A stretch of DNA of 64,000 bases from positions 12,922-76,921 of the forward strand of contig DAIUCC010000008.1 in assembly GCA_036846365.1 (NCBI GenBank), written 5' to 3'. Position numbers and translations under genes: made by a program. This document shows positions 22,760 through 64,000 of the stretch, piece after piece; within the stretch, counting starts at the first letter, position 1, and every line of letters starts with the position of its first letter. The notes below the pieces were generated by a model that saw nothing but the letters and a program-made list of their open reading frames with translations, made no database searches and was not told the origin of the DNA. Origin of the DNA: Anaerolineales bacterium (GTDB lineage: Bacteria; Chloroflexota; Anaerolineae; Anaerolineales; Villigracilaceae).

Positions 22760-22962
22760 GGGAACCTGCCGTGAAAAGATTTGCATTATTTTACTCCCAA
22801 GACGCATGGGTGCTGGAAACCTACCCATCTTCAAGACAACACTACCTGGTTTCTGTCGCTTATCCTACAAATGTCGCGCTTTGATGGTTGACGATGGGAC
22901 ACAAAAAATGTAAATTTCACACCAGCCATGTTGTCCATGATGTACCCCGAAAGGCTTTAGAA

Positions 22963-23889
22963 ATGTCCACTCAAAAACAAATGCAAGTTCAAACTGAATT
23001 TTCCATCCATCCCGAGACCCGCATCGGCCATGTCGCGTTGAGCGTAGCCAGCCTCGATAACGAGATCGCCTTTTATCAGCAGGCGCTCGGCTTCGTATTG
23101 CGCCACCGCGAGGGGAATATCGCCACGCTCGGCTCGGAGCAGACCGGGATTCTGCGTCTGGTCGAGCAACCTGGGTATCGCCGCTATCGCCGCGTGACAG
23201 GACTGTATCACTTTGCCACGCTGTTCCCCAACCAGCGCGAACTGGCGCGCGCCATCGCCCGTCTGTTCGTGTTGAAATATCCCAACGCGCCCACCGACCA
23301 CATCATGACCAAGACCACCTACCTCGACGACCTCGAAGGCAACGGCATCGAACTGTATGCCGAGTCGCCTGAAGATGGGACCTGGTCGCTCAAGGACGGT
23401 CAGTACATCACCCGCCGAACGGACGGCAGCCTGAGCGACGGGCGCGAACCGCTCGACCTGGACGCTCTGTTCAGCCACCTCAAGCAGGATGACAAGCTGG
23501 ACCTGACCGTCCCGCCCGAAACACGCATCGGCCACATGCACCTGCATGTCCGCGACCTGCACGAAGCCGTGGATTTCTATCACGGCGTGCTCGGCTTCGA
23601 CGTCATGGGCGTGGTGGACGAGTTCCGCATGGCCTTTGTCTCGGCGGGCGGCTACCATCACCACATCGGATTGAACACCTGGCAGGGCGAGGGCGCTCCG
23701 CCGCCTCCGCCTGATGCCGTGGGTCTACGCTACTTCAGCGTGGAACTGCCGAACCAGTCCGCGCTGGACGAGGTCATCGCCCGCGTGGACGCGGCGGGCA
23801 TCCCCGCCAACCAGACCGAGCATGGATTGTTGATCCACGACCCCTCGCAGAACGGCGTGATGCTTTCTCTACGCTCCACCTCACTCTGA
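22963..23889 (+). CDS. two-domain VOC-family protein (glyoxalase/extradiol dioxygenase-like)
   Basis: Duplicated RIGHVALSV... and RIGHMHLHVRDL VOC modules. Confidence 0.7.
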   Translation: MSTQKQMQVQTEFSIHPETRIGHVALSVASLDNEIAFYQQALGFVLRHREGNIATLGSEQTGILRLVEQPGYRRYRRVTGLYHFATLFPNQRELARAIARLFVLKYPNAPTDHIMTKTTYLDDLEGNGIELYAESPEDGTWSLKDGQYITRRTDGSLSDGREPLDLDALFSHLKQDDKLDLTVPPETRIGHMHLHVRDLHEAVDFYHGVLGFDVMGVVDEFRMAFVSAGGYHHHIGLNTWQGEGAPPPPPDAVGLRYFSVELPNQSALDEVIARVDAAGIPANQTEHGLLIHDPSQNGVMLSLRSTSL

Positions 23890-23914: not shown

Positions 23915-24529
23915 ATGGAATACACACTGACGATCTTCTCCGATTACATCTGACCGTGGTGCTACGTCGGCCAGGGTGTGGTCGCAAAGTTACAAGCTGA
24001 ATACAACGTCGAAGTCGACTGGCGTCCGTACTATCTGCGCCCCGATACGCCGCCCGAAGGCATGGACCTGCCCGATTACATCCAGCGGGCGCGTGCCAAC
24101 GGCTCGGAGGAACGTCTCGCCCAGATGGCGGCTGCCAACGGCATGAAGTTCAAGTCCACGGAGCGCATCTACAACACGCGTCTCGCGCACGAAGCTACCG
24201 AGTACGCACGCGAACATGGCAGGCTGCTCGAATTCCATCACGCCGTGTTCCAGAAGGTCTACGGCGAAGGCCTCGACATCAGCAGTTGGGACATCCTGCG
24301 TCAGGCCGCCCAGGAAGCGGGTCTTGACGCTGACGAGATGCAGACGGAAGTCGAAAGCGGCACCTACACCGAAGCCGTCAGGATGCAGGTCGATCAGGCG
24401 CAACGTATCGGCGTGCAAGGCGTTCCCACCTACGTGATGAACAACCGCTACGCGGTGGTCGGCGCACAACCATACGAGGTGTTCCTGCAAGCCATCGAGC
24501 GCATTCAACAGGATGCGGAGAAACGATAA
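23915..24529 (+). CDS. DsbA/FrnE-family thiol:disulfide oxidoreductase with in-frame TGA at the first active-site Cys (U/stop-PWC); selenoprotein candidate or pseudogene
   Basis: ATG 23915 MEYTLTIFSDYI-[TGA 23951-23953]-PWCYVGQGVVAKL... exactly mirrors family start MxIxxxSDxxCPWCYxG; all in one frame; downstream ORF in track starts at GTG 23978. Confidence 0.6.
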
Positions 24530-24532
24530 CGA

Positions 24533-24560
24533 ACACGGCGGACCTTTTGGTCCGCCGTGT
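24533..24560 (+). terminator. terminator after dsbA-like gene
   Basis: acacggcggacc-tttt-ggtccgccgtgt + tattttctc. Confidence 0.5.
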
Positions 24561-24639
24561 TATTTTCTCCACTTTTTCTTTTTCTCCGTCTTGGGGTATC
24601 ATCCACGGGAACCAATTCGCCGACAGCGAAGGAGACGCG

Positions 24640-25413
24640 ATGACCTATACCCACATCCTGACCGAAACCCGCGGACGCGTGGGCTTGCTTACCCTCAACC
24701 GTCCGCAAGCCCTCAACGCCCTGAACCACGCCTTGCTGACCGAACTGATGGACGCGCTCTCCGCCTTCGACGCGGACGAGCAGGTCCGTGTCATGGTCAT
24801 CGCAGGGAGTCAGCGGGCATTCGCCGCGGGAGCCGACATCCGCGAGATGGCCGACAAAACCGTCCAGCAAATGATGGACAGCGATCCGACCGCCGTCTTC
24901 GGGCGCATTCGCTCGATCCGCAAACCGGTCATCGCGGCGGTCTCGGGCTGGGCGTTGGGCGGCGGATTTGAGCTGGCCCTGTCCTGTGACATGATCGTGG
25001 CGTCCGAGTCGGCCCGCTTCGGCCTGCCCGAGGTGACCATCGGGGTGATGCCCGGCGCAGGCGGGACCCAGCGCCTGCCGCGTGCAGTGGGCAAGGTCCT
25101 CGCGATGGAGATGGTCCTCAACAACCGCAGCCTGTCGGCGCAGGAAGCGCTCCAGCTTGGGCTGGTCAACCGCGTCGTCCCGCCCGAAAGATTCCTCGAC
25201 GAAGCCTTATCCCTCGCCGCGCAGATCGCAGAACGTGCTCCGCTGGCGGCACAAGCCGCCAAACAGATGATCCTGCAAGCCTACGAACGTCGGCTGGGCG
25301 AAGGGCTTGAGGAAGAGCGTCAGGTCTTCTACAATCTCTTCGCCAGCGAGGATCAAAAAGAAGGCATGGCAGCCTTCCTCGAAAAACGCACGCCCACCTG
25401 GAAGGGACGATGA
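24640..25413 (+). CDS. enoyl-CoA hydratase (crotonase family)
   Basis: AAGADIREM, oxyanion GWALGGGFELALSCDM; GAAGGAGA RBS. Confidence 0.85.
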   Translation: MTYTHILTETRGRVGLLTLNRPQALNALNHALLTELMDALSAFDADEQVRVMVIAGSQRAFAAGADIREMADKTVQQMMDSDPTAVFGRIRSIRKPVIAAVSGWALGGGFELALSCDMIVASESARFGLPEVTIGVMPGAGGTQRLPRAVGKVLAMEMVLNNRSLSAQEALQLGLVNRVVPPERFLDEALSLAAQIAERAPLAAQAAKQMILQAYERRLGEGLEEERQVFYNLFASEDQKEGMAAFLEKRTPTWKGR

Positions 25414-37209: not shown

Positions 37210-37770
37210 TTATTTGCGTTGCAGCTCGTAATTAAGAACAACAATCCCGCAGTCAAAAGATGTGGATTTCACCAATACCAGATTTTGTCTGCTGTCCAGT
37301 TCTTTGAAAATTGACATTCCATTACCAATCGCAACTGGATTGATAAACAGATGAAACTCATCGATCAATCCGTGCTTGATGAGAACCGATACAAATGCCA
37401 CGCCACCATAAGCAATGATGTCTTTACCGTCTTGTTTTTTTAGTCTTGCGATTTCTTCAACCAGGTCGCCTTTTGCCAAAACAGTATGATCCCATTCTGA
37501 CTTCTCAAGCGTTTTGGTAAAAATAATTTTTTTCGTGCTATTGAATTTATCAGCGCCTTCTTGTTCTGGATGAGAAGCCCAATATGGGATAAAACCTTGA
37601 GCAAGTTTCCGCCCAAGAAGGATGCAGTCAACTGGCTCCATTATTTCTCCCACATGTTTTTTAAGATTATCGTCCCAATCTTGCGCCGTCCAATCCATTT
37701 CCCCGTTCTTTCCTGCAATGTAACCATCAACAGTCATCTGGACTTGGAGTTTTAGTTTTCTCATTATCAT
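37210..37770 (-). CDS. dihydrofolate reductase-like (RibD C-terminal domain) family protein, cassette-like
   Basis: LQVQMTVDGYIAG...ILLGRKL...AYGGVAFVSVLI pattern of RibD_C/DHFR-like family; AT-rich. Confidence 0.7.
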   Translation of the reverse strand: MIMRKLKLQVQMTVDGYIAGKNGEMDWTAQDWDDNLKKHVGEIMEPVDCILLGRKLAQGFIPYWASHPEQEGADKFNSTKKIIFTKTLEKSEWDHTVLAKGDLVEEIARLKKQDGKDIIAYGGVAFVSVLIKHGLIDEFHLFINPVAIGNGMSIFKELDSRQNLVLVKSTSFDCGIVVLNYELQRK

Positions 37771-37942: not shown

Positions 37943-38743
37943 TCACTCTGTGCTTTTACGGGCGATTTGGTCAACGATTCCTGGTGCAATAAGTCTCAGC
38001 CAGAGCCCAAACTTACCTTGTAAAGTCATCACAACTTCTCGTTTGCGCTTTTGAACTGCTTGAATGATCTGATAAGCGCAGGTTTCCACTGGCATCGCTT
38101 CCTTTTCATGCACTGAGATTTGACCGGTTGGATCACCATCCAGTTTGAGCCCTCGGCTGCTAATCCCTGTTCTGACCCACCCTGGGTAGATCATCGTTAC
38201 ACTTACACCCGTATCTATCAATTCAACCCGTAGCGAGTCAAAGAAACCCGCCATCGCATGTTTACTTTCTCCATAGCCATCGGCAGTTGCTGACGGAAAT
38301 TTTCCGCGCAGGCTAGATATACCGACTAACCGTCCCTGTGTCCTTTTCAAATAGGGCAGTGCATAATGTGTGCAATAAACACTCCCGAAAAAGTTAACCT
38401 GTGTCACCTGCTCGAATAGAGCAAGATCTTGCATTTCGTCAAACCTTGACTCTACCCCAAAACCAGCATTGTTGATCAGCGTATCTACCCTTCCATATTC
38501 TGCAACGGTTTCTTCAATGAGGGTTTGGCATTGTGCTTTGATGCCAACATCGGTGGGGATTACGATGACTTTTCCACCCAATTGTGTACATTGCTGCGAA
38601 ACTTCTTCTAGCCGCTCAACATTTCGTGCCCCCAAAGCAAGCCAAGCTCCTTTTCTCGCCAGTTGCAATGCCAATTCCTGCCCGATTCCATAGGATGCTC
38701 CTGTAATAACCACGACATTTTCTCGAAAGGTAGTATCTTTCAC
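37943..38743 (-). CDS. SDR-family oxidoreductase (cassette 5)
   Basis: TGASYGIG, YGESK catalytic motif; GTG start with AGGAG RBS. Confidence 0.85.
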   Translation of the reverse strand: MKDTTFRENVVVITGASYGIGQELALQLARKGAWLALGARNVERLEEVSQQCTQLGGKVIVIPTDVGIKAQCQTLIEETVAEYGRVDTLINNAGFGVESRFDEMQDLALFEQVTQVNFFGSVYCTHYALPYLKRTQGRLVGISSLRGKFPSATADGYGESKHAMAGFFDSLRVELIDTGVSVTMIYPGWVRTGISSRGLKLDGDPTGQISVHEKEAMPVETCAYQIIQAVQKRKREVVMTLQGKFGLWLRLIAPGIVDQIARKSTE

Positions 38744-38898: not shown

Positions 38899-39888
38899 CT
38901 AAGCTGATTTCATATACCCATTCTCTTCGAACCAATTTATAGCCTTTCTAATGGTCATCTCGATTGGTGTCTGTGGTAGGCCGAGTTCATTCACTGCCTT
39001 GGAGCAGTCATACCATTCTGTCATTTTGCCGATCCTGACTTCGCTAGCTGTTACAACAGGTGTTTTTTTTGTTATGGAAGCAGCAACTTCGAAGATGTGT
39101 CCTAGCGCAAGTGCTATATGATAAGGTAATTTGACGGCCGGTGGCTTTACGCCAGCAATATCCGCAATAAGCTTTAAATAATCTTGAACCGTGAAGTTCC
39201 TATTTCCCAAAAGATATCTTTCGCCTACTCTGCCCTTTTTTGCAGCAAGGATATGGCCACGGGCCACATCCTCGACATCGACGATATTTATTCCTCCATC
39301 AATATAGCCGGGCATTTTTTGCTTGATGACATCAATAATCATTTGTCCTGATGGCGTTGGCTTTATATCATTCGTACCGATAACAAGAGTAGGATTGACC
39401 ATTACAACTGGCAATCCCCGTGTAACAAAAATTCTTGCCTCATTTTCGGCAATATATTTGGACATGGAATAGTGATCGCCGGATTCCCAATAATTAAAAG
39501 CCTTCTCTTCATTAGCAGGCACAGAACCACTCGCAGCAATTGCATTGTTGGTGCTGGTGTAGATGACTTTCTCCACTCCAACTTCAAGAGCTGCTTGGAG
39601 GGAAGCCTTCGTACCGCCGACATTGATATCATAGAGTAATTTGGGATCCGGGGCCCAGTGAGCAAAATATGCAGCCGTGAAATAGAGTGTGTCACAACCG
39701 CTAAGAGCCCTTTTCATAGAATCGCCATCGCGAATATCTCCATATACTCTCTCAACATCGAGCTTGTCGATGTTGAGCGTATCACTGGTTTTTCTGATTA
39801 AGACCTTTACCTCTTCCCCATTTTTGATTAGTTCTCTCGTGATTGCTGAGCCTATAAATCCTGTTGAGCCAGTAACAAGTTTCTTCAT
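38899..39888 (-). CDS. NAD-dependent epimerase/dehydratase family protein (cassette 4)
   Basis: KKLVTGSTGFIGS Rossmann; YSMSKY catalytic YxxxK; GAGG RBS before ATG 39888. Confidence 0.85.
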   Translation of the reverse strand: MKKLVTGSTGFIGSAITRELIKNGEEVKVLIRKTSDTLNIDKLDVERVYGDIRDGDSMKRALSGCDTLYFTAAYFAHWAPDPKLLYDINVGGTKASLQAALEVGVEKVIYTSTNNAIAASGSVPANEEKAFNYWESGDHYSMSKYIAENEARIFVTRGLPVVMVNPTLVIGTNDIKPTPSGQMIIDVIKQKMPGYIDGGINIVDVEDVARGHILAAKKGRVGERYLLGNRNFTVQDYLKLIADIAGVKPPAVKLPYHIALALGHIFEVAASITKKTPVVTASEVRIGKMTEWYDCSKAVNELGLPQTPIEMTIRKAINWFEENGYMKSA

Positions 39889-39916
39889 TTTTTGATGCCT
39901 CACTTTATGTGTATAA

Positions 39917-41189: not shown

Positions 41190-41873
41190 TTATACCTTTG
41201 CCATTATCTGATCATAGTATTGGACAGCCGCTTCGATATCGTCTCGACTAACATCAGGCCAGTATGCCTGGGTAACATAAACGCAGGCATCGGCACTTTG
41301 CCACAACAGAAAATTACTTAATCGCTGCTCACCACTGGTACGAAGCACCAAGTCAACATCAGGCAATCCAGTTGTCCATAAATAATGTTCAATAGTAGAC
41401 TCGGAAATTGTTTCCATCCTTGCGCTTTCTGCTAACAACTTACGCGTCACATTTACCAATTCAGCCCGCCCTCCATAATTGAAAACAAAATTGAAGATTT
41501 CAGGGCCATTATGTTGGGTTAGAGCGACTGCATCATCCAGGGCTTGTAATGCTTTTGGCGTAAGTTCATCTCTTCGACCGCAATGCACAAAGCGAACACC
41601 ACTTTGATGTAATTTGCTTACAAACTCAGGCAAATGTTTTTCCAGAGAACTCATGATATAGCCTACCTCAGCTTTAGGCCGATTCCAATTCTCTGTGGAC
41701 CAGGCATAAGCCGATACGATTTGAATACCAAGCGCATGGCAAATCTCTAATACATGGGGAATATGTTCAAATCCGGCTTTGTGTCCGGCACTTCTTGAGA
41801 GACCCCGTTGTTGTGCCCAACGTCCGTTGCCATCCATAATCAGCCCAATATGTCTCGGTATGATCATAAGCAT
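41190..41873 (-). CDS. cis-prenyltransferase (undecaprenyl-diphosphate synthase family) (cassette 2)
   Basis: IPRHIGLIMDGNGRWA and RTSGEQRLSNFLLWQ signatures of UppS family; low GC unlike a core uppS. Confidence 0.85.
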   Translation of the reverse strand: MLMIIPRHIGLIMDGNGRWAQQRGLSRSAGHKAGFEHIPHVLEICHALGIQIVSAYAWSTENWNRPKAEVGYIMSSLEKHLPEFVSKLHQSGVRFVHCGRRDELTPKALQALDDAVALTQHNGPEIFNFVFNYGGRAELVNVTRKLLAESARMETISESTIEHYLWTTGLPDVDLVLRTSGEQRLSNFLLWQSADACVYVTQAYWPDVSRDDIEAAVQYYDQIMAKV

Positions 41874-58474: not shown

Positions 58475-61400
58475 ATGTCTCGACAGGATGACGAAGCGAT
58501 GCCCTCCAATTCCAAGACATCCCGTAAGAATGCCAGACAGGGTAACATCCTCCATCAGCATTACCTCGAAAAAATGGACCTGGTCAACCGGGCCATGCAG
58601 GGGAAGAGCGATTTGGGACAGGTAATGCAGGATGTGCTCGACAGCCTGCTCGTGGTCTTTGAGTGTGACCGCGCCTGGCTGGTCTATCCGTGCGACCCGG
58701 AGTCTCCCACCTGGCAGGTGCCCATGGAACGGACCCGCCCGGAGTACCCGGGCGTGCTCCCCATCGGAGTGGAGTTGCCGCTTGACCCGGTCGGAGCCGA
58801 GGTCTATCGCATCCTGCGCGAGACAGACGGCCCGGTCCAATTCAGCCCGGGCGGGGAACATCCCGTCCCACGCGAGATGGCCGAGGGGTTCCAGGTGCAA
58901 TCCTTCCTTGCCATGGCGTTCTACCCAAGGATCGGAAAGCCCTGGTCGTTCGGGTTGCATCAATGTTCATACGCACGAATCTGGGACGAGGAGGATAAAC
59001 GGCTGTTTCAGGAAATTGGCAGACGTCTCTCCGACGTTCTGACCAGCCTGCTCGCTTATCAGAATCTTGAAGCGAGCGAGCAAGAGCTCAAGCACCTGAT
59101 CGATTCTTCGCCCGTTGCCATGCTGGTGTCCTCAGGCGCGGATGAACATGTCGAATGGATCAATAACAAATTCGTCGAACTGTTTGGCTACACCATCGAG
59201 GACATGCCTGATGTGGAACATTGGTGGCCGCTGGCCTATCCCGACCCGGAATATCGAAAGATGCTGGAGGCCGAGTGGCATGACAGGGTCACAAAAGCCA
59301 TCGAAGGACGGGGACAGATCGACCCGGTGGAGGCGGATGTCACCTGCAAGGATGGTTCCCTGCGGCACATCGAATTCCGCATGTCTTCCATCGGAGAGAA
59401 ACATCTCATCACTTTCATGGACCTTACTGAACACAAGCGCATGGAGGAGGCGGTACGGGCATCCGAGGCGGAATTGCGCACCCTGATCAGCGCGATGACG
59501 GATGTCATCTTCGTGGGAAATTCGGAGGGGCGTTACCTGAAAATCATCGAAACCAATCCGTCGCTTTTATATAAACCATCGCAGGACCTGCTGGGGAAAA
59601 CACTGCACGAGGTTTTCCCAAAAGACCAGGCGGATTTCTTTCTCAACCACCTGAGAGAGGCGCTTGCCACCCAAAAATCGGTCAATTTCGAATACAGCTT
59701 ATCGATTGACGATAAAAAAATGTGGTTCTACGCCACTGCCACGCCAATATCAGATGATCAAACCTTGATGGTGGCCAGGGACATTACGTCTCGCAAACTT
59801 GCCGAAGAGGCATTGCAAGAACGGGAGCGTCATTCACAATCCTTGCTGCGGCTCTCCAAGCGGCTGGAACAGGCTCAAACATACACGGAGGTATTGAACG
59901 CAGCGCACGACGAAGTGCGATCTATCATCGGATATCAGAACTTGTGGGTATACCTGCTGACGGAGGATAGGAAATACGCGCACGCTCTGGTTTCCGATGG
60001 AGTGATCCCGGATACTGTGATGTCTGAGGAATGGGCAGCCACGCTATCCATCCAGGGAGATCGGATGCTCGAAGAGATTGCAGAAGCAAAGGATATCGTC
60101 GTAGTCGAGGATGCGCGAACCGACGAGCGAACCAACAAGGAGATCGTTGCGCAAATCGGGAATCGCACCATCGTCAATGTTCCTATTTTTTTCTTTGAAA
60201 AACACCTGGGCTCGGTTGGCATGGGCACCTTCGGTAGTGAGGGCGTGCGTGTTCCTAGTGAGTCAGAAAAGGAATACCTTAAAGCCATGGCCAGCCACAT
60301 GGCGGTTTCGCTGGATCGGGTCCATCTCCTCAACGAGCGCAAGCGGGCCGAGGAATCGCTAAGGGATAGTGAGGAAAAATATCGTCTATTACATGAACAT
60401 GCCGGGGTTGGGATCGGATACTACAAACCCAATGGAGAGATCATTTCATTTAATCAGATGGCCGCCCGCCACATGGGCGGGAGCCCTGAAGATTTCAATG
60501 AGAAATCCATTTATGATATCTTTCCAAAACAGGAAGCTGATTTCTACATGGATAGAATCAAGCAGTCCCTGACATCTGAGACGGCGTTTGAATATGAGGA
60601 CCACTTAACTCTGCCATCAGGCGAAAAATGGTTTCTGAGTCTTTTTGCGAAGATAAGCGATATACAAGGGAATATCGTCGGTGTGCAGATTATCAGCCAG
60701 GACATCACCGAGCGCAAACGGGCCGAGGAGGAGGAACATCGTTTGAACCGGGAACTGCGCGCCATCAGCAACTGCAACCAGACCTTGATGCGGGCAGTGG
60801 ATGAACAAACGCTCCTGAACGATATTTGCAGGATCGTCTGCGACGAGGCTGGGTATCGCCTAGCCTGGGTGGGCTACGCAGAACACGATGAGGCCAGGTC
60901 CATCCGCCCGGTCGCCTGGGATGGGGCGAATAGCGATTTCATCTCCGACATCCAGCTCTCCTGGGCAGACAACACGGAGAATGGCAGTGGAGCGACCGGG
61001 GTCGCGATACGCAGCGGAGAGGCCGTCTACATTCAGGACATTTCCACTGACCCGCGCACGGCCCCATGGCGTGAACTTCTCCTGGGATACGGATACCGCT
61101 CCAACATCGCATTGCCTCTCAAGGACGATAAAGCGAATGTCTTCGGGGTTATGGGAATCTACTCCGAAGAGGTCAATGCCTTCACACCGGGCGAAATCCG
61201 CCTGCTGGAGGAATTGGCCGGCGACCTGGCCTTTGGCATCACCACCCTGCGCACCCGCGCCAGGCGCAGACAGGCGGAGGCGGAACTTCGGGCCAGCGAA
61301 GAACGTTTCCGTACCTTTGTGGAGAAAGCCAACGACATCGTATACACCATTTCCCCAGATGGCGTTTTCACCTACATCTCTCCCAATTGGAAAGAAATCC

Positions 61401-64000
61401 TGGGGCATGAAACCAGCGAAGTGGAAGGTCAATTATTTGAAGCCTTTATCCACCCCGATGACCTTGCTGCATGTCGGGATGTCTTGAGACGGGCCATTCA
61501 CAACAGCGAAAAAATCTCGGGCATCGAATATCGGGTCAAGCACAAGGATGGAAGCTGGCGCTGGCACACGTCGAATGCCTCGGTCCTCCGCGATGCAGAC
61601 AATAACATGGTGTCTTATCTTGGCATTGCGCGTGATATCACCGAGAAGAAGCGGGTGGAAGAGGCGTTATGGAAATCATCGCAGATGTGGAAGCTGGCCC
61701 TGGAAAATATGCCTGCCTTCGTGTTTTGGAAGGACCGCCATAGCGTCTATCTGGGCTGCAACTATTTATTTGCGGCAAATGCAGGCTTGGAATCCATCGA
61801 GGACATTGTTGGGCTGACCGACTTCGATCTGCCGTGGAAAAATACAGAGGCGGAGAGTTACCGGGCTGACGACCGCCTGGTCATGGAAACCGGCCTTCCG
61901 AAGCTCAATTATGAAGAGACGCAACTGACGGCGGATGGCCGCGTCACCAATGTGCGCACCAGCAAGATCCCACTCCGGGGGCTCGACGGAGAGATCATTG
62001 GAGTGCTGGGCACGTTCGAGGATATCACCGAACGAAAGCAGATGGAGCAGGACTTGATTGCTCGCGAACGGGAATACCGGGTCTTGCTCGAAAACATCCC
62101 GGATTTGATCGTACGCTATGACAAGGATTTACGCCGAATCTATGTGAATCCTGCCTGGGAAAAAGCAAGCGGCCTGTCAGCCGATGAGGTAATCGGCATC
62201 CATCCACGCGACGTACCCAGGGTCCCTGCTCCAATGAACAATCAATATTTCAAAAAACTTCAGCAGGCCTTAAGCGATGGAATTGTTCAGACCGTGGAAT
62301 TCACCTGGGTGAATGCTTACGGAGCGGCTCTTTCCCTGGAATATATTATCGTGCCGGAATTCGATCAGCACGGGAACATCAACGGGGCCTTGTCAGTAGG
62401 ACGCGATATTACCGAGCGAAAGCACCACGAACGCGAACGCGAGGTCATCGTCGTTGTCAGCGCCGCCCTGCGCAAGGCCACTACCCGTACCGAAATCCTG
62501 AACGTAATTCTCGACCAGTTGGTCAGTCTGTTCGATGCAGATGGCGCCACCCTTGTCCTGCCCAATGCCAGGACGGGCGGTTACGTCGACGAGATGGGGC
62601 GTGGAATCATTGGGGAACGAATGATCGGGCTGAGCATCCCGCCGGGCAAGGGCGTCTGCAACTGGGTCATCCAGAACAGGCAACCCTACATGACCAACCA
62701 TGCCGACCAGGATGAGCACTTCTACCGTCCCGATTTGCTGGGCGACTCGCGCTGCATTGCGGCGGTTCCGCTCATCGCCCGCGATCTGGTCATCGGGGCA
62801 CTCTGGATCGCCCGCCAGGCCGAAATCACCGAACAGGATTTGCGTCTGCTGAATGCCATCGCCGACATTGCGGCCAACGCCATTCACCGCGTCATCCTCA
62901 ACGAGCAGACCGAGCAACAACTACATCACCTGACCGCCCTGCATCAGATCGACGTGGCCATCACCACCAACTTCGACCTGAACGTCACGCTCAATCTCAT
63001 TCTTTCCAATGTACGGGAGGAATTGGAGGTCGACGCAGCCAGCGTCCTGCTGCTGGACCCCGTGACCCACACGCTCGATTACGCCTCCGGGCTGGGATTC
63101 CACACCCGCAACATCGAGCGTTCCCACGTCGGAATCGGGGTCGGTTGTGCCGGGCGCGCCGCACTCGAATACCGCACCATCTGCTGCCGCGACCTGACCG
63201 ATCAAAGCGGACCCTTCAGCCGGTCCTCGCTTTTAGCGGGGGAAGGCTTCGAGGTACATTACGCCACCCCGTTGGTCGTCAAGGGGCAGGTCAAAGGTGT
63301 GCTGGAGGTCTTCCACCGCAGGGGTTTCGATCCCAACACGGAATGGATCGATTATTTCGAAACCCTTGCCACCCAGGCTGCCATCGCCATCGAGAGCGCG
63401 TCCCTCATGGAGAATCTGCAACGCTCCAACTCCGAATTGATGCTGGCCTACGACGCCACCATCGAGGGCTGGTCCCGCGCCCTCGACCTGCGCGACCGGG
63501 AAACGGAGGGTCACACCCAACGCGTGGCGGACATGGCCTTGAAACTGGCCGAACGCATGGGCATGAGCAACGGCGAAAAACAGGATTTGTGGCGCGGCGC
63601 TCTGCTGCACGACATCGGAAAGATGGGCATACCCGACGCGATCCTGCACAAACCTGGGAAACTCACCGACCCTGAATGGGAGATCATGCGGCAACATCCC
63701 GTGTATGCCTACAACATGCTGGCCCCCATCACCTATCTGCGACATGCCCTGGACATCTCCTATTGTCATCACGAAAAATGGGACGGCAGCGGATATCCGC
63801 GCGGGCTGAAAGGCGAAGAGATTCCGCTGACCGCGCGTGTGTTCGCCGTGGTGGATGTCTTCGATGCGCTCACCTCCGACCGTCCTTATCGCAAGGCCTG
63901 GTCGAAGGAAAAGGTGTATGAATACATTCGGGAACAGGCGGGGAAACAATTCGACCCGAAAATTGTGAGCGTCTTCCTCGAAAGCAAGTTGGCGGAATAA
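58475..64000 (+). CDS. multi-PAS/GAF sensor with C-terminal HD-GYP phosphodiesterase domain (1841 aa)
   Basis: Repeated PAS modules (ITERK/ITSRK/ITEKK boundaries), GAF domains, C-terminal HDIGKMGIP...HHEKWDGSGYPRGL. Confidence 0.85.
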   Translation: MSRQDDEAMPSNSKTSRKNARQGNILHQHYLEKMDLVNRAMQGKSDLGQVMQDVLDSLLVVFECDRAWLVYPCDPESPTWQVPMERTRPEYPGVLPIGVELPLDPVGAEVYRILRETDGPVQFSPGGEHPVPREMAEGFQVQSFLAMAFYPRIGKPWSFGLHQCSYARIWDEEDKRLFQEIGRRLSDVLTSLLAYQNLEASEQELKHLIDSSPVAMLVSSGADEHVEWINNKFVELFGYTIEDMPDVEHWWPLAYPDPEYRKMLEAEWHDRVTKAIEGRGQIDPVEADVTCKDGSLRHIEFRMSSIGEKHLITFMDLTEHKRMEEAVRASEAELRTLISAMTDVIFVGNSEGRYLKIIETNPSLLYKPSQDLLGKTLHEVFPKDQADFFLNHLREALATQKSVNFEYSLSIDDKKMWFYATATPISDDQTLMVARDITSRKLAEEALQERERHSQSLLRLSKRLEQAQTYTEVLNAAHDEVRSIIGYQNLWVYLLTEDRKYAHALVSDGVIPDTVMSEEWAATLSIQGDRMLEEIAEAKDIVVVEDARTDERTNKEIVAQIGNRTIVNVPIFFFEKHLGSVGMGTFGSEGVRVPSESEKEYLKAMASHMAVSLDRVHLLNERKRAEESLRDSEEKYRLLHEHAGVGIGYYKPNGEIISFNQMAARHMGGSPEDFNEKSIYDIFPKQEADFYMDRIKQSLTSETAFEYEDHLTLPSGEKWFLSLFAKISDIQGNIVGVQIISQDITERKRAEEEEHRLNRELRAISNCNQTLMRAVDEQTLLNDICRIVCDEAGYRLAWVGYAEHDEARSIRPVAWDGANSDFISDIQLSWADNTENGSGATGVAIRSGEAVYIQDISTDPRTAPWRELLLGYGYRSNIALPLKDDKANVFGVMGIYSEEVNAFTPGEIRLLEELAGDLAFGITTLRTRARRRQAEAELRASEERFRTFVEKANDIVYTISPDGVFTYISPNWKEILGHETSEVEGQLFEAFIHPDDLAACRDVLRRAIHNSEKISGIEYRVKHKDGSWRWHTSNASVLRDADNNMVSYLGIARDITEKKRVEEALWKSSQMWKLALENMPAFVFWKDRHSVYLGCNYLFAANAGLESIEDIVGLTDFDLPWKNTEAESYRADDRLVMETGLPKLNYEETQLTADGRVTNVRTSKIPLRGLDGEIIGVLGTFEDITERKQMEQDLIAREREYRVLLENIPDLIVRYDKDLRRIYVNPAWEKASGLSADEVIGIHPRDVPRVPAPMNNQYFKKLQQALSDGIVQTVEFTWVNAYGAALSLEYIIVPEFDQHGNINGALSVGRDITERKHHEREREVIVVVSAALRKATTRTEILNVILDQLVSLFDADGATLVLPNARTGGYVDEMGRGIIGERMIGLSIPPGKGVCNWVIQNRQPYMTNHADQDEHFYRPDLLGDSRCIAAVPLIARDLVIGALWIARQAEITEQDLRLLNAIADIAANAIHRVILNEQTEQQLHHLTALHQIDVAITTNFDLNVTLNLILSNVREELEVDAASVLLLDPVTHTLDYASGLGFHTRNIERSHVGIGVGCAGRAALEYRTICCRDLTDQSGPFSRSSLLAGEGFEVHYATPLVVKGQVKGVLEVFHRRGFDPNTEWIDYFETLATQAAIAIESASLMENLQRSNSELMLAYDATIEGWSRALDLRDRETEGHTQRVADMALKLAERMGMSNGEKQDLWRGALLHDIGKMGIPDAILHKPGKLTDPEWEIMRQHPVYAYNMLAPITYLRHALDISYCHHEKWDGSGYPRGLKGEEIPLTARVFAVVDVFDALTSDRPYRKAWSKEKVYEYIREQAGKQFDPKIVSVFLESKLAE

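Follow-up and report, generated by a model that had tools for sequence, protein, structure and literature searches.

The 64-kb stretch of DNA analysed here (the window, numbered from its first letter) is part of contig DAIUCC010000008.1 of an Anaerolineales bacterium and carries on its forward strand a gene whose reading frame is interrupted once by a TGA codon. This single frame (23915..24529) begins with an ATG (23915..23917), codes MEYTLTIFSDYI in the 12 codons that precede the TGA (23951-23953), continues in phase as PWCYVGQGVVAKL... and terminates at a TAA (24527-24529). The segment that follows the TGA, which starts with PWCYVGQGVV, is free of further interruptions up to the TAA. The gene is predicted to code a selenoprotein related to DsbA and FrnE in which the in-frame UGA (23951..23953) is read as selenocysteine (Sec, U13), replacing the N-terminal nucleophilic Cys of a CPWC motif. 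The predicted product has 204 residues when U13 is counted. Gene callers start translation at a GTG codon (23978..23980), which codes Val22 of the full-length frame, and thereby obtain a 183-amino-acid product that lacks the active site. The program-made list of open reading frames (ORFs) of the window shows only this GTG-initiated fragment (23978-24529). The initial annotation of this DNA had described both the frame from ATG 23915, with its in-frame TGA and intact downstream part, and the shorter fragment devoid of the CxxC motif; the sequence and its translation agree with the two descriptions.

The Pfam profile DSBA (PF01323) covers the whole protein when a Cys is put at the TGA position (E=3.2e-42, 144.9 bits for a cut-off of 25.6), with residues 4-194 matching positions 1-190 of the 191 of the profile. 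U13 and C16 are the only Cys or Sec residues of the protein and are found within the motif U13-P14-W15-C16, which has the UxxC organization. Among proteins of solved structure, the closest by sequence is Deinococcus radiodurans FrnE (5CNW/5CP1, E=5.6e-31), and the first Cys of its CPWC motif is aligned with the TGA ('SDIACPWCYIGK' versus 'SDYI[TGA]PWCYVGQ'). This alignment and the orthologues with a Cys codon at the same place, described below, confirm the earlier proposal that the TGA sits exactly at the nucleophilic Cys of the CxxC motif.

A scan of species-representative genomes (GTDB, one genome per species) yielded 233 places related to the gene, of which the best 80 were kept and are termed loci hereafter. 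They come almost all from metagenome-assembled genomes (MAGs) of Anaerolineales or other Chloroflexota, and their products are 64-95% identical in amino acid sequence to the window protein. The active-site codon is TGA in 70 of the 80 loci and TGC or TGT in the remaining ten, which answers the question raised by the initial annotation of whether orthologues carry Cys or TGA at this codon. Together with the window, the set comprises 81 ORFs, 71 of them with the TGA. Its recurrence at this codon in 70 of the 80 related loci puts the placement of the TGA far beyond chance, in keeping with the initial opinion that a random nonsense mutation hitting this very codon would be improbable.

The reading frame is preserved on both sides of the TGA. 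Every locus conserves, in frame, the approximately 12 upstream codons (M-D/E-F/Y-K/T-L-T-I-F-S-D-Y-I), the start and amino terminus appearing as MDFKLTIFSDYI or MEYTLTIFSDYI, and a Met codon is found at the position of the window ATG in most loci. Residues -8 to -1 and +1 to +10 relative to the TGA are invariant, or nearly so, across the relatives. Synonymous sites 5' of the TGA vary (1.61 bits for Leu, 1.19 for Thr and 1.16 for Ser). The stretch that precedes the TGA is thus translated in this frame, its amino acids being kept while the synonymous sites change, and translation would continue in phase across the TGA. All 81 ORFs are intact, with 197-204 codons from position -10 to the stop, except for one of 231 codons, and none has a frameshift or a second stop. 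A comparison at the protein level that took the best 120 protein clusters gave 72 full-length clusters with DY[IV]CPWCY, 43 clusters of 178-185 residues, four with DYIWPWCY and one fragment.

An error of sequencing or assembly, in which the A at 23953 would in truth be a C or a T, was conceivable a priori and has nothing else in its favour. The identical TGA is found in 70 independent assemblies that originate from many projects and technologies, and the same protein, with the TGA present, is encoded in ENA and Logan contigs. The probability of such an error is practically negligible.

A hairpin resembling a bacterial selenocysteine insertion sequence (SECIS) lies within the coding sequence, 3' of the TGA and on the same strand (23966..23985). 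Its 5' arm CGGCCA (23968-23973) and 3' arm UGGUCG (23979-23984) form a stem of 6 bp closed by the loop GGGUG (23974-23978), and one extra pair, G23966-C23985, can be made across the bulged U23967. The UGA is separated from the loop by 20 nt, and the free energy of folding (dG) is -8.3 to -9.0 kcal/mol. Across the TGA forms the stem reads (G)UCGGCCA / UGGUCGA(C), with the loop GGGUG and an upper stem of 6-8 bp. The hairpin cggcc-AGGGUGU-ggucg of the initial annotation is the same element in a register that is one pair out: the A and the final U assigned there to the loop pair with each other.

The published model for bacterial SECIS elements (bSECIS; PMC13188914) specifies an apical loop of 3-9 nt with a G in its first two positions, an upper stem of at least 4 bp, a distance of 16-37 nt from the UGA to the loop and a dG of -7.5 kcal/mol or lower. 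All four criteria hold for 71 of the 71 TGA sequences (dG from -8.3 to -13.0 kcal/mol) versus three of the ten Cys forms (L023, L049 and L060). The element resembles the bacterial consensus of the bSECISearch model of Zhang and Gladyshev (PMC13188914) in its 5-nt loop that starts with GG and in the 20-nt spacing, and differs from it in that its sequence hardly changes among the 71 TGA sequences, which is unusual.

This invariance is found at the nucleotide level. Codons +5 to +10 (V-G-Q-G-V-V) are nearly frozen in the TGA forms, being GTC in 70/71, GGC in 71/71, CAG in 70/71, GGT in 69/69, GTG in 71/71 and, for the last codon, GTC in 63 and GTT in 8 sequences. These six codons have a synonymous entropy of 0.7-1.85 bits in the ten loci of the Cys form, and comparable four-fold-degenerate codons at other places of the TGA-form sequences have one of 1.1-2.2 bits. 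All of the 47 distinct sequences (100%) can form the six core pairs. Substitutions in the stem are limited to G-C to G-U (six sequences) and C-G to U-G (one sequence), both of which preserve pairing, and sliding the partner strand by 1-3 columns reduces pairing from 90% to 18-50%. In the alignment of the 71 TGA sequences 28 of 42 columns are invariant. Five of the 21 columns that make up the hairpin (16-36) vary, two of them being stem columns with wobble-compatible changes and two lying at the outer end of the stem. The support for a SECIS would therefore come from the synonymous-site constraint specific of TGA forms and from the fit to the bSECIS model, and not from covariation.

These observations bear directly on the possibility that the gene is a pseudogene, that is a Cys-type FrnE-like gene hit by a nonsense mutation, with nothing functional made from 23915-24529. 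The window sequence taken singly allows it, a change from TGC to TGA being one substitution; gene callers and public annotation take the TGA as a stop, and no machinery for Sec is seen within the window. A decayed gene is hard to reconcile with the same TGA and intact ORFs in 70 of 80 species-level genomes at the protein identities given above, with amino acids that are kept on either side of the TGA while synonymous sites vary freely, and with an additional nucleotide constraint that sits on the hairpin 20 nt downstream in the TGA forms only. The divergence of the TGA forms also excludes that they represent a single recent clone. A pseudogene is thus extremely unlikely, and the comparative evidence supports a UxxC selenoprotein over it. 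The preference expressed initially for a selenoprotein is upheld by the retention of the TGA, the intact ORFs, the hairpin constraint confined to TGA forms, the TGC or TGT codons of the remaining orthologues and the earlier documentation of the family as one of selenoproteins (COG2761, UXXC; PMC1088965).

It is very likely that the UGA at 23951-23953 encodes Sec and is accompanied by a conserved in-frame SECIS. In the proposed mechanism the mRNA hairpin (stem CGGCCA/UGGUCG, loop GGGUG), positioned 20 nt 3' of the UGA, would act as a bacterial SECIS and recruit the SelB·GTP·Sec-tRNA(Sec) complex to the ribosome paused at the UGA. The gene product is almost certainly a Sec-containing FrnE-type oxidoreductase of the DsbA family and belongs to a selenoprotein family already known. 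Without Sec decoding in these genomes, the maintenance of the TGA together with the SECIS in 70 species would be difficult to account for. In the lineage, Anaerolinea thermophila UNI-1 was scored positive for SelD, SelA and SelB (Table S1 of PMC5029168) and credited with four selenoproteins (Table S2 of the same study), and Caldilinea aerophila was also positive for SelD, SelA and SelB (PMC5029168). These data point to Sec machinery at the level of the lineage; for the genome studied here we infer Sec decoding. We likewise infer Sec insertion, SelB binding, the presence of selA, selB, selD and selC in the genome, and the substrates and reductant of the enzyme.

Several results weigh against Sec decoding or temper the evidence for it. 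Neither a tRNA-Sec nor selA, selB or selD is found within the 64-kb window by ARAGORN, Rfam and Pfam searches (the latter on ~50 ORFs, which revealed no other selenium gene either), and the window has no tRNA genes at all. ARAGORN detected 18 tRNAs in the window plus the 80 loci (~20 kb each, about 1.2 Mb together), none of them a tRNA-Sec. A tblastn search of the same DNA with approximate Escherichia coli SelA, SelB and SelD queries gave no matches, which is a weak negative. The fraction of 70/80 overstates the share of Sec in the wider family because the loci are those nearest to a TGA-form query; the 120 best protein clusters provide a broader figure, 47 TGA versus 72 Cys.

The hairpin itself is also open to objections. 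Compensatory double substitutions were looked for in the stem and none was found, shuffled alignments giving a value equal to that observed; the stem hardly varies and the covariation test is for this reason uninformative. The window hairpin is not better than that of shuffled sequence (z = -0.76), and folding of 76 nt around the UGA revealed no significant structure (z = +1.0), the short local fold and the comparative data being the informative ones. The window hairpin is furthermore the weakest of the set, with six contiguous pairs and -8.3 kcal/mol, owing to codon +11, which in the subclade of the window is GCA (Ala) and in most relatives GAx. An Rfam scan of the window at gathering thresholds gave no match, a result that is uninformative for short bacterial SECIS elements. 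The judgement 'suggestive but weak' passed on the hairpin in the initial annotation was fair for a lone sequence, and the significance of the window hairpin would come only from its comparison with relatives.

The lack of Sec machinery in the window and in the 80 loci, as well as the absence of covariation in the stem, also count for the alternative that the UGA is read through with one of the standard amino acids Trp, Cys or Arg inserted by near-cognate decoding, the hairpin being then a generic stimulator of read-through. The base that follows the TGA in the related loci is always C (the next codon being CCN), and UGA followed by C is a weak termination context, which counts for this explanation. 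The site of the catalytic nucleophile alternates only with Cys codons, however, and this is the classical signature of Sec/Cys exchange. The hairpin matches an element of the SelB-dependent type in loop, spacing and stability in 71/71 sequences, the family is already catalogued as a selenoprotein, and the class Anaerolineae has SelA, SelB and SelD. A Trp or an Arg in place of the nucleophile would yield a dead enzyme, which is hard to square with purifying selection. Decoding of the UGA by a standard amino acid is on these grounds very unlikely.

A genome-wide reassignment of TGA was considered and rejected. When genes were called crudely in the window, TGA was the ordinary stop at the end of 26 of the 61 ORFs, among them the VOC-family gene located directly upstream of the selenoprotein gene (stop at 23887-23889) and many genes with a strong third-position GC bias. 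When the window was scanned for genes split by a single in-frame TGA, 22 candidates emerged and a redox motif at the TGA was present only in the DsbA-like gene. The most plausible of the others, at 21051-20146 on the reverse strand, was discarded: it is a complete NUDIX hydrolase gene that ends normally in TGA, and the ORF beyond is a distinct one.

Information on the fold of the protein was obtained from a model of the closest natural Cys homologue, P0006, which is 75% identical to the window protein (mean predicted local distance difference test score, pLDDT, of 89.5). The model superposes best on the FrnE structures, with template modelling (TM) scores of 0.85-0.86 and root mean square deviations of 2.4-2.5 Å. 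The next structural neighbour is SCO1869 of Streptomyces coelicolor, while kappa-class glutathione S-transferase (GST), HCCA isomerase and classical DsbA follow at a greater distance. The model features a strand at residues 3-9, a helix at residues 14-29 and a helical insertion at residues 54-164, residue 13 being found directly before the helix 14-29. The N-terminus of helix alpha-1 is the canonical position of the nucleophile in the thioredoxin fold, where the helix dipole lowers its pKa. A conserved GVP motif (residues 169-171) precedes strand beta-3 and aligns with the GVP of FrnE; we take it to be the cis-Pro loop of DsbA-type folds. According to the model the protein is cytoplasmic: strand beta-1 starts at residue 3 and the active site is at residue 13, which leaves no space for a signal peptide.

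The chemistry proposed for the enzyme is deduced by homology. The selenolate of U13, at the N-terminus of helix alpha-1, would attack a substrate disulfide and C16 would then resolve the mixed selenenylsulfide. The resulting Se-S form would be re-reduced by an external partner, which may be the thioredoxin system or a low-molecular-weight thiol.

FrnE of D. radiodurans (DR_0659; PDB 5CNW, 5CP1 and 5CO3), a cytoplasmic disulfide oxidoreductase that belongs to the FrnE subfamily (cd03024) of the DsbA family, shares with the window protein the C/U-P-W-C site and the absence of a signal peptide. This subfamily is characterized by a C-P-(W/F)-C site at the start of helix alpha-1 in a thioredoxin fold with a helical insertion, and the U-P-W-C site and the modelled fold agree with it. 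The two proteins are about 31-32% identical and differ in the presence of Sec at the position of FrnE Cys22 (numbering of PMC8945050) and in size, the window protein having 204 residues compared to 260 for the crystallised FrnE chains. FrnE displays in vitro disulfide isomerase activity and reduces insulin, its reduction of 5,5'-dithiobis-(2-nitrobenzoic acid) is driven by thioredoxin reductase and NADPH, and a frnE mutant is sensitive to cadmium and diamide (PMC8945050). A C-terminal CxxxxC tail, for which a role in regeneration of the active site was proposed in FrnE (PMC8945050), is a trait of many but not all members of the FrnE subfamily. The window protein ends at residue 204 without such a tail, as do the FrnE proteins of S. 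roseofulvus and D. maricopensis (PMC8945050). Its regeneration would need to take another route than the one of FrnE because this tail is missing.

The structure is also relevant to assess if the real product could be the annotated 183-amino-acid protein started at GTG 23978, a DsbA fold without CxxC motif for which the 12-codon ORF upstream would be irrelevant. This is the protein called by every pipeline, and DsbA folds that lack the CxxC motif do exist, kappa-class GST and HCCA isomerase among the structural neighbours being examples. The truncated protein would lose strand beta-1 and begin halfway along helix alpha-1, as deduced from the model (strand 3-9, helix 14-29). The 12 upstream codons and the PWCYVGQG segment are moreover kept in frame at the amino acid level in all 80 loci, and the GTG lies inside the conserved hairpin and encodes an invariant Val that the full-length Cys forms have too. 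It is highly unlikely that the short protein is the genuine product of the gene.

The preferred interpretation, a full-length protein with Sec at position 13, implies that public records of the TGA forms are systematically incorrect. Of the 120 best protein clusters, the 43 short ones share their first codon, a Val or Met directly after CYVGQG that corresponds exactly to the GTG inside the SECIS-like hairpin. All the TGA-form records that were looked up in NCBI, JGI and ENA are N-terminally truncated 'DsbA family oxidoreductase' entries of 178-185 amino acids. MBI3173656.1, MCB0102721.1, MBK6795073.1 and MBI5840213.1 are such entries without the catalytic motif, and the window protein itself is found on its NCBI record only as the truncated product. 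When the full-length sequence was looked up as an exact entry in the protein collection, with either X or W as residue 13, no match was obtained. Among NCBIfam models none for this family attains its cut-off, and the missing annotation of the Sec codon may be due to this. The annotation error is concrete and many times repeated, and a family model that includes the Sec position would correct the entries.

The four clusters with DYIWPWCY (P0028, P0034, P0057 and P0067) raised the possibility of an active-site variant with Trp. The one whose DNA was fetched, P0028, has a TGA at this codon (L084, 147-149), located on a short contig for which the gene caller used a model that translates TGA as Trp. 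The Trp of P0028 is accordingly an artefact of annotation and not a variant, and all four clusters are counted as TGA forms (47 with the 43 short ones).

The selenoprotein family to which the gene is assigned was first described in 2005 as 'DsbA-like protein' in the Sargasso Sea selenoproteome, where it was associated to COG2761 (the COG of FrnE) and to a UXXC motif (PMC1088965). It was found afterwards in several Deltaproteobacteria and Clostridia (PMC1794560), and Peng et al. counted in 2016 45 such proteins in 41 bacteria (PMC5029168). A 2026 review lists it as 'DsbA-like protein form 1', with PF01323 and UxxC (PMC13188914). The window gene has in common with the family the PF01323 domain, a UxxC motif with Sec in place of the N-terminal Cys, a SECIS inside the coding sequence directly downstream of the UGA and widespread Cys homologues. 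Its close homologues bear in JGI the names 'predicted DsbA family dithiol-disulfide isomerase' and 'Predicted dithiol-disulfide isomerase involved in polyketide biosynthesis', which are presumably those attached to COG2761. The gene appears to be a new member of the known DsbA-like family, its placing in a subfamily being based on Pfam, motif and COG-style names; it represents neither a new mechanism nor a new selenoprotein family.

The review distinguishes also a 'form 2' defined by the motif DxxUP, whose exemplar is annotated as a crotonase (MDP6049977.1; PMC13188914). The segment D10-Y-I-U13-P14 of the window protein fits DxxUP, the comparison with this form being made by motif only. The presence of the resolving Cys C16, which completes the UxxC motif, argues for form 1 over form 2. 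The likeness to the form 1 exemplar NIP15863.1 is one of family description and not of alignment. Chloroflexi or Anaerolinea are not named for the DsbA-like family in PMC13188914 or in the main text of PMC5029168. The TGA form is found here in at least 70 species-level genomes, which exceeds the 41 organisms that the 2016 count gave for the entire family. How common the gene is in Anaerolineales, and how systematically it is mis-annotated, appears to have been uncatalogued so far.

The distribution of Sec and Cys was inspected on a tree of all 81 proteins obtained by neighbour joining, which was computed quickly from the distances of a short protein and carries no support values. The ten Cys forms occupy at least five separate places in a tree that is otherwise made of Sec forms: L020; L023/L049/L060; L063/L069/L073; L053/L080; and L077. 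In L049 and L060 the hairpin is identical to that of Sec forms and in L023 it has a single wobble-compatible change (dG from -8.5 to -10.6 kcal/mol for these loci). The hairpin is lost in the other seven Cys forms. L023, L049 and L060 are probably recent conversions from Sec to Cys that retain a relic SECIS. The pattern suggests that Sec was replaced repeatedly by Cys through a single change from TGA to TGC or TGT, followed by a later decay of the SECIS, the number and the direction of the switches being tentative. Such repeated replacement agrees with the dynamic picture of bacterial selenoproteins drawn in PMC1794560. Sec is the majority state among the 80 most similar loci and probably the ancestral one in the clade.

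On balance it is probable that Anaerolineales are a large, uncatalogued reservoir of the DsbA/FrnE-like selenoprotein, in which Sec is the majority state, the SECIS is near-identical and the switch to Cys occurred at least five times. If this holds true, these bacteria, which are very common in metagenomes from wastewater, sediment and groundwater, would use Sec routinely in a cytoplasmic thiol-disulfide oxidoreductase, and the use of selenium would be under-counted in a group that is abundant in sludge, sediment and groundwater. The clade would also offer a natural series to study the replacement of Sec by Cys, with some members that still carry a relic SECIS.

Two of the loci with an Anaerolineales-type TGA gene, L016 (DYDH01000112.1) and L068 (DATGOZ010000144.1), are from MAGs titled 'Herpetosiphon sp.' and 'Taishania sp.', respectively. 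We take Taishania to be a genus of Bacteroidota. The two loci are probably mis-binned contigs or come from mislabelled bins.

The selenoprotein gene is preceded on the same strand by a two-domain gene of the VOC/glyoxalase family (22888..23889; PF00903, E=2.6e-20), which ends 25 nt before the selenoprotein ATG. This neighbour can also be described as a member of the extradiol-dioxygenase family; it belongs to the genomic context and takes no part in the recoding. A promoter-like site was not found in the 25 nt that separate the two genes. A hairpin with the features of an intrinsic terminator (24532..24568, forward strand) starts 3 nt after the selenoprotein stop codon and is composed of a 13-bp stem (24532-24561) with nine G-C pairs and a TTTT loop, followed by ATTTTCT. 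It is plausible that the VOC and selenoprotein genes form a two-gene transcription unit, which is not a universal feature, the VOC adjacency being kept in 11 of the 80 loci. A functional link between the two genes in a thiol-dependent detoxification would be pure speculation.

Directly downstream, after the terminator-like hairpin, lies a gene for an enoyl-CoA hydratase/crotonase (24640-25413). It is found as a neighbour only in the two closest relatives among the 80 loci (L001 and L002) and is not a conserved partner. Its presence next to the selenoprotein gene is probably unrelated to the 'crotonase' label of form 2 (PMC13188914).

Farther in the window, the segment 36500-43400 has a low GC content (0.43-0.51, compared to ~0.59 in the rest of the window) and a third-position GC of 0.30-0.49 versus 0.7-0.85, with all its ORFs on the reverse strand. 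Pfam matches identify in this island a RibD_C-like reductase (37210-37770), a short-chain dehydrogenase (37943-38743), an NAD-dependent epimerase/dehydratase (38899-39903) and a prenyltransferase similar to undecaprenyl-diphosphate synthase (41190-41873), while several other ORFs have no Pfam match. The segment looks like horizontally acquired DNA that serves perhaps in cell-envelope or polyprenyl-sugar metabolism. An ORF of about 1,840 codons (58475-64000, forward strand) reaches the end of the window.

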